The notes under the pieces were generated by a model. The model ran no database searches, was not told the origin of the DNA, and saw only the letters and a program-made list of their open reading frames with translations. A stretch of DNA of 64,000 nucleotides from Escherichia coli. GTDB lineage: Bacteria > Pseudomonadota > Gammaproteobacteria > Enterobacterales > Enterobacteriaceae. The first letter of the stretch is position 1; each line of letters begins with the position of its first letter. Shown here in pieces: positions 3,286 to 56,808 of the stretch. The DNA lies in NCBI RefSeq assembly GCF_048403405.1, contig NZ_CP183129.1, one strand, 5' to 3'. Position numbers and translations under genes: made by a program.

Positions 3286-3310
3286 TCATCGCTAAACAGC
3301 GAACACAATC

Positions 3311-3390
3311 TGTAAAATAATATATACAGCCCCGATTTTTACCATCGGGGCTTTTTTTCTGTCTTTTGTACTCGTGTACTGGTACAGTGC
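3311..3390 (+). promoter_or_regulatory. mtr control region: TyrR-box-like TGTAAA-N6-TATACA (about 3311-3328) and TrpR-operator-like GTACTCGTGTACTGGTACAG (about 3368-3390)
   Basis: Motifs read directly from the sequence; mtr is known to be controlled by TyrR and TrpR; the assignment of these exact sites is inference. Confidence 0.4.
3329..3358 (+). terminator. rho-independent terminator downstream of deaD
   Basis: GC-rich hairpin CCCCGAT...ATCGGGG followed by a T-run. Confidence 0.6.
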
Positions 3391-4799: not shown

Positions 4800-5807
4800 C
4801 TATCCCAACAACTCTTCCTTAACATCCATCGCCAGTTCAAACGAATGCAGGCGCGCCTGGTGATCGAAAATCTGCCCGTTAACCATAATCTCATCGGCGT
4901 CGGTTTCGCGCAGGATCGACTGCAAGCCGTGACGCACTTTCGCTTTATCACCCACCAGCGACATACTCAGCGCCTGCTGCACGCCATACTGCTCGGACGG
5001 TGACCAGAACTGATCCATATTTTGAATCGGCGGCGGCAGTTGCCCGGTTTCGCCACGGCGCAGCTTCACAAAGGCTTGCTGCATTGAGGTAAACAGAAAT
5101 TCAGCGTCGCGGTTGCTGTCGGCGGCGATAATATTGATGCACACCATCGCATACGGTTTTTCCAGCCGTGCCGACGGTTTGAAGTTGCTGCGATAAAGAT
5201 GCAGCGCCTGGAACAACATATCCGGCGCGAAGTGTGAGGCAAACGCAAACGGCAGACCAAGCTGCGCCGCCAATTGCGCGCTGTAAAGGCTGGAGCCTAA
5301 CAACCACACGGGGATTTTCTCGCCATAGCCTGGTACCGGGCGCACATGCGGATTGGGATCGCGGGCGTCAAACCAGTCCACCAGCTCCGCGACATCGCGG
5401 GGAAAATTATCAATATCGCCGCTCATATGACGACGTAGAGCCATCATGGTTCGCTGGTCACTACCCGGAGCACGACCCAGCCCCAAATCGATTCGCCCCG
5501 GATAGAGCGTATTAAGCGTGCCGAACTGTTCGGCGATCACCAATGGTGAGTGATTAGGCAACATCACGCCGCCAGACCCCAGATGCAGCGTAGTGGTATT
5601 CGCCGCCAGATAGCCAATCAAAACTGATGTTGCAGCACTGGCAATGCCGGTCATATTGTGGTGTTCCGCCAGCCAGTAGCGATGATAGCCGCGCTTTTCA
5701 GCCAGACGGGCGAGGTCGAGAGAGTGGGAGAACGCTTCTCGCGCTGAAGAACCTTCGGGAATGGGGGCCAGATCGAGTAGCGAAAACGCAATGGTTTTAT
5801 CAGTCAT
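4800..5807 (-). CDS. yhbW: luciferase-like monooxygenase family protein YhbW
   Basis: ORF track 335 aa; recognised as YhbW; conserved position. Confidence 0.9.
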
Positions 5808-5887
5808 AACAGCTCACTTTGTTACCGATTAATCTTTAATACTGCATTAAAGAGTAGTTAAAGTTGTTAACAAAGTGAGCTATTTAC

Positions 5888-6766
5888 TTACGCTTGCAGC
5901 TCCAGCCCGGCCAGCCGACGCCAGTAGCCGTTACAATCGCTGTTTGCCGTCAACGGCAGTGGCGCAGCGCCATTTTCATTGGCGCGGAAGGCGTCGAGTA
6001 TCGCGAAAGTGTCAGTACCCTGCGGTGACAGGCGGACCACATCAACCAGCCCCTGCATGGATGCCAGCTCGTTACCGAGGTTGTAAACGTAGCCGCTCAT
6101 GGTCTGAATGCCGTTGAGTACAAACACTTGTTGGTTTTCCTGCGACAGCACGTTGCGCCCGTTCGGATACTTAATGCAGCAGGTTTCGCACTCATCTTTC
6201 GGGCGGTCTTCCGAACGCGCGGTAAAGCAGCGGGCGGAGTAGGCCAGCGGCAGATGACCGTAGCTCAGGACTTCCACTTCAAACTGGTTGCGAATGCCCA
6301 GCTCATCGCACTGATTAAGCAGATTCACCAGCCAGTCGCGGGAAAGCTCCACCGGCATACACCAGCGCATCATGCCCTGTTTGAGCAATATTTTCAGTGT
6401 CACCGCGTTGTAGCAGTTCAGCGCGTGCCCGGCGACGAACGGCAGTTTGCGTTCAGCGCACATATTCACCACGCCGAGATCGCTGGCTTCAATCAGAAAC
6501 TCACCGTTCTCAACATAGCGTTTCAGTTCGCCCAGTTCAGAGGATGCCTGCACCAGCGCCAGCGTGGAGAGCACAATCTGCTTACCACTTCCGGCGAGTG
6601 ATTTTGCCATCTCCAGCCAGTCGCCAACTTTGGTTGCCCGGCGCTTGCTGCATACCGCTTCACCAAGATAAATCACGTCGGCGCTGCTGGCGGCGGCCTG
6701 CTGATAAAATTCTTCCAGCGTCTCTTTTGGCCAGTACCACAGCACTGGCCCTAAGGAATATTTCAT
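5888..6766 (-). CDS. ubiV: peptidase U32-family protein UbiV (YhbV), O2-independent ubiquinone biosynthesis
   Basis: ORF track 5888..6784; start moved to the ATG giving MKYSLGPVLWYW... (292 aa); Cys cluster for Fe-S binding; adjacent to ubiU. Confidence 0.88.
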   Translation of the reverse strand: MKYSLGPVLWYWPKETLEEFYQQAAASSADVIYLGEAVCSKRRATKVGDWLEMAKSLAGSGKQIVLSTLALVQASSELGELKRYVENGEFLIEASDLGVVNMCAERKLPFVAGHALNCYNAVTLKILLKQGMMRWCMPVELSRDWLVNLLNQCDELGIRNQFEVEVLSYGHLPLAYSARCFTARSEDRPKDECETCCIKYPNGRNVLSQENQQVFVLNGIQTMSGYVYNLGNELASMQGLVDVVRLSPQGTDTFAILDAFRANENGAAPLPLTANSDCNGYWRRLAGLELQA

Positions 6767-25979: not shown

Positions 25980-27260
25980 TTATTGGCCTTCACAGGCTGT
26001 GTGGTACTGCGCCAGGATGTCCTGAATATGGTTGATAATGAGTTCCCGTGGCGTTGGCTGCAGCTCGCCGGAGCGAACTTTCACGTATTGCAGCGGCAAA
26101 TACTGGCTGATGAGCGGTAGCGGAATTGGTGAATCCGCCAGATTACGAACCAGATGAGCGAAAGCGTCATCAATCTGGCTGTCCGGCCAGTAATAGCGCA
26201 CGCGATCCGAGTAGCTATAACCACGTGCCAGACGACGCGCGTTGCCGTCACCGTGGTAGTGGCTTTGCCAGTATTCCGGGCGGTCGAGCATCACGTTTTC
26301 CAGTACCTGACGCAGACCGGAACAGGCTTTCGCTGGCACCAGTTCTTCTTCAATCGCCGCCAGAGAGAACAGAGCTTCACGCAGGGCGAAGGTCAGCGCC
26401 GGGCCAACTTTCAGAATGGCAAAGTGGTCAATCACCAGCTGGCGCAGCGATTGCGGCGTTTGATAATCGGTAGAGTGCGCTTCGAAAATCAGCGTTTCGT
26501 AGTTTTCGACCATCTGGCTTAAGGCGGTCGCTTTAGCTGGCTGATAATCAATAACGTTGGTGTGATCGAATTCGACGCCGGGTTGTACCACCAGAGCAAT
26601 GATGCGTGGCCAGATGGCACTCAGACCTTGCTTTTCAAAGGCGTGACGATGGGCTTCCAGCGTGGCGCGGGCGGCATCTGGCGTGGTGACCGCCAGCTCG
26701 CTTAAGGTTTCATGCGCGCCGCCAGGTACCGGCACTTCGGTACCAATGACATACTCCAAATCGGCTTCGCCAAAGTGTTCACGACAGGTTTCTTCCGCCA
26801 CTTTCGCCAGACGTGCGGCGCGTTCAGCCACGATGTCATCAGTTAAGGGAATTGGATCGTCCTGACAGGACATGCTGCAATCAAGGTGAATTTTTTTGAA
26901 TCCTGCCGCCACGTAGCTTTTAATCAAATCATCGGCATTGGCCATTGCCTGAGCGGCTGGCAGGTTTTGCCAGCGGTTTGGCCCCAGATGGTCGCCTCCC
27001 AAAATCAACGCATCCTGTGGGAAATTCAACGAGTCGGCGAGCTGACAAACAAAGCCGCGAAAATCGGCGGGCGTCATTCCGGTATAACCGCCGAACTGGT
27101 CCACCTGATTGGAGGTTGCTTCAATCAGTAACGGCGTTTGGTTTGCACTGGCGTAGCGGATTGCAGCTTCCAGCACCAGCGGATGTGCGGAACAAACGGC
27201 ATAAATCCCATTTGTTTTACCCTCTTTGTGCTGTCTCACCATTTCTGTCAGATGTTTCAC
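25980..27260 (-). CDS. kbaZ: tagatose-bisphosphate aldolase non-catalytic subunit KbaZ
   Basis: ORF track 426 aa; recognised as KbaZ (AgaZ). Confidence 0.92.
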
Positions 27261-27508
27261 TTTCCTCTCCAGTTCAGATTACTGCGATATTAATCTTTCG
27301 TTTTGTTTCAGTTGATACTGCGCCATGGTGAGATAAAAATAAAACGAAAGATAATGGTTTTCTGATCTGATTCACAAAAGAAACATAATGAAAGCCACTG
27401 AAACGAGAGTAGCTTGCGCCAATGGGTAAGGTGGGCTTGCATTTGCTTAATAGAAAGGCGTTAATAGGCAAAACGAAATGAAACGAAAGTTTTACGAAAG
27501 GACTTACT
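27261..27508. promoter_or_regulatory. divergent kbaZ/agaR promoter region with several CTTTCGTTT-type AgaR boxes
   Basis: Motifs ctttcgttttgtttc, aaacgaaagataa, aaacgaaatgaaacgaaagttttacgaaagg read directly from the sequence. Confidence 0.5.
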
Positions 27509-28318
27509 ATGAGTAATACCGACGCTTCAGGTGAGAAGCGAATGACAGGCACCAGCGAGCGACGAGAACAGATCATTCAGCGTCTGCGACAGCAAGGGAG
27601 TGTGCAGGTTAACGATCTGTCGGCATTGTATGGCGTATCTACTGTGACGATCCGCAACGATCTGGCGTTTCTGGAAAAGCAGGGGATCGCTGTGCGTGCC
27701 TATGGCGGCGCGTTGATCTGCGATAGCACGACGCCGTCAGTCGAGCCATCAGTGGAAGATAAAAGCGCGCTGAACACCGCAATGAAACGCAGCGTTGCGA
27801 AAGCTGCCGTTGAGTTGATTCAGCCAGGTCATCGGGTAATCCTCGATTCCGGGACCACCACTTTTGAGATTGCTCGTCTGATGCGCAAGCACACTGACGT
27901 AATTGCGATGACCAACGGTATGAACGTGGCTAATGCGTTGCTGGAAGCGGAAGGCGTTGAGCTGCTGATGACCGGCGGGCATTTGCGCCGTCAGTCGCAA
28001 TCTTTTTACGGCGATCAGGCTGAGCAATCGCTGCAAAATTACCACTTCGATATGCTGTTTCTTGGTGTAGATGCGATCGATCTGGAGCGCGGCGTCAGCA
28101 CACATAATGAAGATGAAGCTCGTTTAAACCGCCGGATGTGCGAAGTTGCGGAACGGATCATCGTGGTCACCGATTCCAGTAAGTTCAATCGTTCCAGTTT
28201 ACATAAGATCATTGATACTCAACGTATCGACATGATCATTGTTGATGAAGGCATTCCTGCGGATAGTCTGGAAGGGCTGCGAAAGGCTGGGGTTGAAGTG
28301 ATTCTGGTCGGGGAGTGA
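27509..28318 (+). CDS. agaR: DeoR-family repressor of the aga operons AgaR
   Basis: ORF track 269 aa; N-terminal HTH and DeoR C-terminal domain; recognised as AgaR. Confidence 0.93.
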
Positions 28319-56439: not shown

Positions 56440-56808
56440 TTAGTAGTCGCGCGCTTCCAGCTTTTTCAGCTCTTCCTGCGCTTCTGCCAGTTTCCGTTCG
56501 CGTTTGGCAATCTTATCGGCATCGCCTTTTTGCTTCGCCTCGGCTAAATCTTGCTGGCGTTCCGCCACCTCATCTTTCTGCTTTGCGATTTTCTTCTGAT
56601 GATCGGCACGCAGCTGGCTATCTGAACAGTTGGCCCGGACTTCACTCAGGGCTTTATTCAGACCGTCAATACGATTCTGGTTTTGGTGTTTTTCGGCATA
56701 GCTGATCTCCTTAAGGATATTTTGCTCCTTTTCCTGACACAGGGTAGTGGCATAACTACCGGCACTAAGAGCAAAAAGAGAAACAGCTAAAGCGATGCGG
56801 TATTTCAT
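56440..56808 (-). CDS. yqjC: DUF1090 periplasmic protein YqjC
   Basis: ORF track 56440..56823; ATG giving MKYRIALAVSLFALSAGSYA... (signal peptide; 122 aa). Confidence 0.85.
   Translation of the reverse strand: MKYRIALAVSLFALSAGSYATTLCQEKEQNILKEISYAEKHQNQNRIDGLNKALSEVRANCSDSQLRADHQKKIAKQKDEVAERQQDLAEAKQKGDADKIAKRERKLAEAQEELKKLEARDY

Follow-up and report, generated by a model that had tools for sequence, protein, structure and literature searches.

Fold-back inhibition of translation has reportedly been described for the insertion sequences IS10 and IS50 (Tn10 and Tn5) by Davis, Simons and Kleckner in 1985, by Krebs and Reznikoff in 1986 and by Schulz and Reznikoff in 1991. Transcripts that enter IS10 or IS50 from outside carry both arms of an inverted repeat and bury the ribosome-binding site, while those made from the internal promoter do not contain the upstream arm and can be translated. 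Hairpins masking a ribosome-binding site between two cistrons, which lead to coupled or discoordinate expression, are also known from the MS2 coat-replicase junction and several E. coli operons; they involve a long-range helix between an upstream segment and the Shine-Dalgarno and start region of the downstream cistron. On the DNA side, class II promoters of the MarA/SoxS/Rob/RamA family carry a forward marbox near -41 and no recognisable -35 (PMC10268841; PMC12052159).

Judged from sequence alone, the gap in front of yhbW in E. coli resembles IS10 and IS50 in that an inverted repeat appears to bracket the predicted promoter of the gene, with one arm lying over the Shine-Dalgarno sequence and start codon. 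In contrast to these elements, yhbW is a single-copy chromosomal stress gene and not a transposase gene, transcription from outside would originate in one particular neighbouring operon, ubiUV, and the upstream arm seems to double as an activator site. The gap shares the long-range helix with the intercistronic masking hairpins; it differs from them in also possessing a predicted internal promoter, and coupling to ubiV translation is unlikely to be its conserved role.

The stretch of DNA analysed here (the window, 64,000 nucleotides) contains mtr on the plus strand, followed by yhbW, ubiV and ubiU on the minus strand. The gap between ubiV and yhbW measures 80 bp, the same length as in K-12, and has the mRNA sense (minus strand) 5'-AAUAGCUCACUUUGUUA-(43 nt)-UAACAAAGUGAGCUGUU-AUG. 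The features of the locus are as follows.

5890-5888, minus strand: ubiV stop codon.
5868-5884, minus strand: upstream (5') arm AAUAGCUCACUUUGUUA, starting 3 nt past the ubiV stop codon.
5866-5880, minus strand: marbox-like 15-mer GCTCACTTTGTTAAC in forward orientation, a candidate MarA/SoxS/Rob site (RamA in other genera).
5825-5867, minus strand: AT-rich spacer of 43 nt, partly self-complementary, with a mid-stem at 5861-5858 / 5832-5829.
5833-5853, minus strand: apical hairpin or palindrome CUCUUUAAU-GCA-GUAUUAAAG, with the block TTTAATGCAGTATTAAA kept across genera.
5839-5844, minus strand: putative -10 CAGTAT (CA-N-TA-T across genera), with TATTAA at 5841-5836 as an alternative.
5829-5834, minus strand: predicted yhbW start zone, placed by geometry (some 6-10 nt past the -10, with the marbox centred near -41 to -44).
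5808-5824, minus strand: downstream (3') arm UAACAAAGUGAGCUGUU, adjoining the AUG.
5813-5817, minus strand: Shine-Dalgarno-like GUGAG (within AAGUGAG), 5 nt before the AUG, as read from the sequence.
5807-5805, minus strand: yhbW start codon ATG.
6571-6585, plus strand: MarA site gcacaatctgcttac in ubiV, some 770 bp ahead of the yhbW ATG and oriented opposite to ubiV and yhbW.

A repeat search returned two arms of 17 nt each (5808-5824 and 5868-5884), 94% complementary and 43 nt apart, with a perfect 14-nt core at 5811-5824 / 5868-5881. The sole non-Watson-Crick position of the arms is a U·G pair on the minus (mRNA) strand. The search thus confirmed the 14-bp inverted repeat, the 43-nt spacer and the 80-bp gap described in an earlier note on this sequence, and the likely Shine-Dalgarno sequence lies within the 3' arm as stated there, since AAGUGAG is present and the arm adjoins the AUG. 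In the whole 64-kb window, only four inverted repeats have arms of 14 nt or longer within 150 nt, one of which resembles a REP element by sequence reading. A second inverted repeat of 16 nt, ATCTTTCGTTTTGTTT / AAATAAAACGAAAGAT at 27293-27308 / 27337-27352 with a 28-nt spacer, sits between the divergent open reading frames 25980-27260 (minus) and 27509-28318 (plus).

The minus-strand RNA of the gap folds at -28.8 kcal/mol, compared with -14.9 ± 3.0 kcal/mol for dinucleotide shuffles (z = -4.6), and none of 200 shuffles was equally stable. Together with the scarcity of comparable repeats in the window, this z-score places the inverted repeat far beyond chance. The spacer contributes the 4-bp mid-stem and a 9-bp apical stem, so that nearly the entire gap forms one hairpin. 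The folding proposed as a check in the earlier note therefore yields a stable helix over the Shine-Dalgarno and start region.

REP/BIME and ERIC elements and intrinsic terminators likewise form stable hairpins directly after a stop codon. The yhbW element, in contrast, is single-copy and AT-rich, lacks a U-tract and belongs to no Rfam family; ERIC and REP elements occur beside it, not within it. It is present in 5,423 of 5,426 E. coli genomes, nearly invariant, at a median of one place per genome, and in a metagenome scan with the 13-mer of the upstream arm the other matches were unrelated chance sequences without a second arm. An origin as a dispersed repeat of the REP/BIME, ERIC or MITE type was rejected on this basis. 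A search of Rfam 15 gave no match at the gathering score, with sub-threshold microRNA-type hairpins only, even at permissive E-values. A terminator scan of 5500-6300 found no intrinsic terminator between ubiV and yhbW, and the hairpin itself was rejected as one, having an AT-rich stem that continues into AUGACUGAU without a U-tract.

To follow the element across Enterobacterales, we compared 22 taxa, then 39 further unique metagenome variants and three more loci. Both arms are present in 17 Enterobacteriaceae lineages, with loops of 43-117 nt; the earlier note had proposed conservation of the arms as a check. Three blocks are conserved, namely the upstream arm (A/G)GCTC(A/G)CTTTGTTAAC, the apex TTTAATGCAGTATTAAA, and the downstream arm with the start codon, TAACAAAGTGAGC-N3-4-ATG. 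The upstream arm follows the consensus (A/G)GCTC(A/G)CTTTGTTA in 14 of the 17 arm-bearing lineages, while GUGAG is invariant in 16 of the 17 taxa; the exception, GCGAG in Mangrovibacter, is compensated in the upstream arm. K. pneumoniae, Enterobacter, Cronobacter, Franconibacter, Atlantibacter and Entomohabitans have an insert of about 70-80 nt that separates the apex from the downstream arm, and they keep both arms despite loops of up to 117 nt. Among the collected variants, one metagenomic short-form group is marked by ...CCGTCGACAAAGTGAGCT.

The upstream arm is absent from Providencia, Erwinia, Brenneria, Acerihabitans and Serratia. Since Providencia, Brenneria and Erwinia nevertheless carry AACAAAGTGAG or a near copy directly before the ATG, the downstream arm is the older ribosome-binding region and the upstream arm its newer partner. 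By sequence reading, a GC-rich hairpin follows ubiV in Erwinia, Brenneria and Acerihabitans, and a T-run follows this hairpin in Erwinia and Brenneria.

The inserted segment of 70-80 nt is itself a conserved leader, CAGCUUUYCUGGC-(variable hairpin)-GCCAGGCUGGAAGAAGACCUUCAAUCUGAUGAC..GCUG, situated between the -10-like block and the downstream arm. It is present in L097 (K. pneumoniae type), L004, L009, L086, L087, L089, L090 and many metagenome loci, and absent from E. coli, Salmonella and Citrobacter. The leader ends in a mini-ORF, ATG-ACN-NNG-CTG-stop, whose Thr codon varies synonymously (ACC/ACT/ACA/ACG) and whose stop codon is formed by the three bases that open the downstream arm; these vary among TAA, TAG and TGA, each of them a stop. 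The leaders of these other genera gave no Rfam match. The leader could be an uncharacterised leader peptide or a structured element of the yhbW 5' UTR.

Is the pairing between the arms itself under selection? In the 17-taxon alignment, 85.8% of cells pair, and sliding the partners lowers this to 35-50%. The alignment has a covariation score of 0.094 (shuffles, 0.074), and 5 of 500 shuffles reach 0.094, a shuffle-control frequency (3-5 of 500) within the range that related sequences give without any structure. At column pair 7/157, four taxa have A-U and four have G-C; at 12/152, 12 have A-U, four have G·U and one, Mangrovibacter, has G-C (GCUCGC/GCGAGC). The 13-bp core holds nine G·U cells and no A·C cells, an asymmetry that fits pairing in the sense RNA rather than a symmetric DNA site, with the caveat that the positions able to give A·C lie mostly in the Shine-Dalgarno core and would be fixed anyway. 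Covariation of the arms, whose absence the earlier note would have taken as a refutation, is seen in some compensatory changes and is otherwise limited, since both arms hardly vary.

The inner part of the hairpin provides a further view of this question. In 14 of 16 short-form variants, the native spacer gives a better fold than its shuffled versions. The inner stems are lineage-specific: E. coli has UUAA/UUAA, C. werkmanii has GUUAAUCA/UGAUUAAC and L162 has ACGGUAAUC/GAUUGCCGU. RNAalifold recovered only the outer stem on the short-form gaps, because the inner pairing shifts register between lineages; therefore, per-sequence folds with spacer shuffles were used. At the Cronobacter apex, a compensatory TTCAT/ATGAA is found. 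Combined, these comparisons provide moderate evidence for selected pairing.

The two arms may, however, be constrained independently, the upstream one as an activator site or -35 surrogate and the downstream one as a ribosome-binding site, their complementarity being left over from an old inverted duplication without any selected role in RNA. This would suit the persistence of the downstream arm beside the ATG in the three genera without an upstream arm, the constant marbox score and spacing of the upstream arm described below, the small number of pairs that change on both sides, and the location of the would-be A·C positions in an already fixed Shine-Dalgarno core. It does not account for the compensatory changes at columns 7/157 and 12/152, nor for the lineage-specific complementarity of the spacer, which serves neither marbox nor ribosome-binding site. 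Moreover, one metagenomic short-form group lost two inner pairs and has ACGGU/ACCGU further in, and RNA with both arms is predicted to fold whatever its origin. We consider independent constraint unlikely.

The earlier note was not aware of a described regulator for yhbW, which proved wrong: the gene is part of the MarA/SoxS/Rob/RamA regulon (PMC4310594, PMC6561319, PMC3139621). Among the proteins of vanillin-grown E. coli, YhbW shows the strongest induction (77-fold), and it is named as a SoxS regulon member (PMC6561319); in Salmonella, a ramA mutant has 3-fold less yhbW (PMC3139621). For K. pneumoniae, EMSA shows that purified RamA binds a yhbW promoter fragment, and RamA activates in vitro transcription from it 6.9-fold (PMC4310594). 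The primers of these K. pneumoniae experiments (S4 Table, PMC4310594) match L097-type metagenomic loci exactly and define a template of 261 bp, with one end only 41 bp ahead of the upstream arm and the other at +83 of yhbW. These template boundaries place the RamA-dependent promoter and binding site essentially within the region homologous to the gap.

To locate the site, a marbox matrix was built from 87 MarA/SoxS/Rob/RamA ChIP-seq sites (PMC10268841), which themselves score 4.4-18.6 bits. The upstream-arm 15-mer GCTCACTTTGTTAAC, whose region is part of the K. pneumoniae template that responds to RamA, scores 7.0 bits and ranks 144 of 127,972 window positions, a moderate match; in our own alignment, it agrees with 11 of the 14 specified positions of AYnGCACnnWnnRYYAAAYn. 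Its score stays between 5.9 and 7.0 bits in 14 taxa. In 14 of 17 taxa, exactly 21 nt separate the 15-mer from CANTAT, even though the intervening sequence varies freely. A simple consensus promoter scan called nothing in the region, CAGTAT included. The top marbox-like sites of the window, at 13.1-14.5 bits, are 56762-56776 (plus), 28485-28471 (minus), 3303-3317 (plus) and 5171-5157 (minus); among them, 5171-5157 lies inside yhbW and one lies between deaD and mtr.

The forward orientation of the 15-mer and the 21-nt gap match class II geometry, a match that depends on the predicted start site. As in the class II promoters of micF, lpxC P2 and lpxL P1, a forward marbox-like site would replace the -35, with its centre about 41-44 bp upstream of the predicted start, and yhbW is induced by the same regulators. 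Unlike in these promoters, the yhbW marbox is weak (GCTC for GCAC, AAC for AAA), the -10 is poor (CAGTAT), and the candidate site doubles as an arm of a long inverted repeat. Based on the marbox/-10 geometry, the stress-induced yhbW transcript probably starts between the arms, inside the loop, and does not contain the upstream arm. A transcript starting downstream of the 5' arm, which the earlier note had named as an argument against its hairpin reading, is thus probable for the stress-induced transcript, as judged from the template boundary and the class II distance. The supplements of PMC12052159, PMC10268841, PMC3415461, PMC4782308 and PMC2760140, in the parts available to us, yielded no start sites or coordinates for yhbW, and yhbW is not listed in the Salmonella ChIP-seq data.

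MarA ChIP-seq in ETEC H10407 identified a strong in vitro site, gcacaatctgcttac, inside ubiV and none in the gap. With the same ChIP-seq matrix, this sequence scores 5.9 bits. A consensus promoter and terminator scan around this intragenic site found nothing; a weak class I-like arrangement follows it (TATGTT at 6517-6512, marbox centred near -73). E. albertii, Salmonella, Klebsiella and 13 other taxa do not keep this marbox, and gcacaatctgcttac, being specific to E. coli, was rejected as a conserved control site of yhbW. If a transcript into yhbW were driven from gcacaatctgcttac, it would contain the hairpin.

The repeat could also be a protein-binding palindrome, either two inverted marboxes or an operator for a dimeric regulator, above all the apical TTTAAT-N5-ATTAAA, which shares sequence with the putative -10. 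In the K. pneumoniae template, the matrix scores each arm as a marbox, the reversed downstream arm reaching 10.0 bits; across taxa, however, this reversed arm scores anywhere from -12.9 to +8.7 bits, and it lies downstream of the predicted start site. This lack of conservation disfavours the two-marbox reading. MarA-family proteins bind asymmetric sites as monomers, which also counts against a palindrome. The apex TTTAAT-GCAGT-ATTAAA (5833-5853) is more conserved than a hairpin tip or a promoter spacer would need, and the compensatory change at the Cronobacter apex would suit an operator, too. On the other hand, the presence of G·U and absence of A·C mismatches favour RNA pairing, and the spacing of the arms varies from 43 to 117 nt. 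We regard the palindrome as distinctly improbable.

The predicted accessibility of the yhbW ribosome-binding site depends strongly on whether the RNA includes the upstream arm. Opening the region from -13 to +3 of yhbW is predicted to cost 14-18 kcal/mol in RNA that includes the upstream arm and about 3.5 kcal/mol in RNA starting at 5840-5830. Across taxa, the difference in silico averages 10.7 kcal/mol and is at least 8 kcal/mol in 14 of 17. The sequestration of the ribosome-binding site suggested in the earlier note is therefore retained insofar as opening is predicted to be costly, but a switch inside the own 5' UTR of yhbW is unlikely, because the stress-induced transcript probably begins downstream of the upstream arm. 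In our model, the hairpin would form only in RNA arriving from upstream, for which ubiUV read-through is the candidate, and is unlikely to form otherwise.

The position of the hairpin directly after ubiV allows two other readings at the RNA level. First, it may be a processing or stability element, i.e., an RNase III site or a barrier to 3'-exonucleases that defines the 3' end of ubiUV or separates it from yhbW. A 17-bp helix with mid and apical stems starting 3 nt past the ubiV stop codon would suit such a role, as would the lack of an intrinsic terminator and the REP (Salmonella) or ERIC (about 26% of E. coli) elements at the same junction. However, the downstream arm is tied to the Shine-Dalgarno sequence and AUG of yhbW in every lineage, even with the 70-80-nt inserts, which an element for the ubiV 3' end would not need. 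A processing role therefore seems quite unlikely to us. Both this and the palindrome had been offered in the earlier note as alternatives, and both are less favoured here than masking on read-through RNA.

Second, translation of yhbW may be coupled to that of ubiV, whereby the ribosome terminating at the ubiV stop codon melts the helix and yhbW is translated only together with ubiV. In most lineages, the upstream arm indeed starts no more than 10 nt after the stop codon. Nevertheless, the arm lies more than 100 nt away in Salmonella (REP), E. albertii, about 26% of E. coli (ERIC) and the ccdAB lineages, all of which keep the repeat. As judged from the size of the ribosome footprint, a ribosome that terminates at ubiV would unwind no more than the outer 4-6 pairs, without reaching the partner of the Shine-Dalgarno sequence. 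With a stop-to-arm distance ranging from 3 nt to over 100 nt, coupling as a conserved role appears very improbable.

Several rearrangements were observed at this junction. Alignments break exactly at window position 5881, the outer edge of the upstream arm (5881/5882), in 1,412 of 5,424 complete E. coli genomes (about 26%); in L001 (2377-2500) and in strain M19 (L002), the break is an ERIC element of about 125 bp between TAAATA and GCTCAC, L001 being the one break-bearing genome in which, besides M19, this cause was inspected in detail. In the ERIC-plus allele, the flank of the arm becomes CACAGCTCAC, which gives a perfect 16-bp repeat. E. albertii carries ERIC and a further insert at the same junction. 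In M19 (L002 3056-4511, at about window position 5817), an IS110-family insertion lies inside the downstream arm, TAACAAAG/AGAATGAG... (the slash marking the insertion point), and is accompanied in this one strain by loss of the first ~150 bp of yhbW, which the annotation gives as lacking its N-terminus. The Tenebrionibacter-like loci L093 and L217 contain a ccdA or ccdAB toxin-antitoxin cassette between ubiV and yhbW, with the repeat still recognisable at 9-11 bp; in L093, the distance from the arm to the -10 is shorter by 11 bp.

Taken together, the element is a real, conserved regulatory hairpin, of which we found no earlier description in the literature consulted. Most likely, it unites a class II marbox promoter with a fold-back by which read-through transcripts have their ribosome-binding site masked. 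The corresponding model is that ubiUV read-through RNA masks the yhbW ribosome site, while a stress promoter nested in the hairpin gives an open mRNA; we put it forward tentatively, its chance of being correct falling a little short of even. As the most likely account, it draws on sequence, comparative and in silico evidence as well as one published in vitro experiment (RamA, K. pneumoniae), and three of its steps are inferred: where exactly transcription starts, that read-through RNA exists, and how the hairpin affects translation.

At the DNA level, MarA, SoxS or Rob (or RamA) would bind GCTCACTTTGTTAAC to activate a class II-type promoter, whose putative -10 CAGTAT lies at the apex of the palindrome. 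The stress mRNA would start at about 5834-5829, carry only the downstream arm and present an open ribosome site. At the RNA level, any transcript entering from upstream would carry both arms, and a helix of 13-17 bp would bury the Shine-Dalgarno sequence and start region of yhbW in the read-through RNA. Since no terminator intervenes, ubiUV read-through is the main candidate for such an upstream RNA. The 15-nt sequence may thereby be dual, serving as a MarA/SoxS/Rob/RamA site in DNA and as the anti-Shine-Dalgarno strand in RNA, with the choice of promoter setting the translatability of yhbW; this dual role is possible, though we would sooner expect it to fail than to hold.

The operon ubiUV is activated by FNR under anaerobiosis (PMC10470549), whereas YhbW belongs to the FMNH2- and O2-dependent luciferase-like monooxygenases, which use O2 (PMC6561319). 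With the helix burying the Shine-Dalgarno and start region, the O2-dependent luciferase-like monooxygenase YhbW would not be made from the anaerobic transcript.

The gene yhbW is among the strongest mar/sox/rob responders and a multicopy suppressor of rpoE essentiality. If the model holds, an O2-dependent enzyme would not be produced from the transcript of an anaerobic operon, even without a terminator between the genes, and one short sequence would be both a transcription-factor site and the strand opposing the ribosome site. As a caution, an anaerobic RNA-seq signal over yhbW need not mean that the protein is made. If true, the arrangement would represent a translational insulator operated by promoter choice for a chromosomal gene, conserved across the Enterobacteriaceae.
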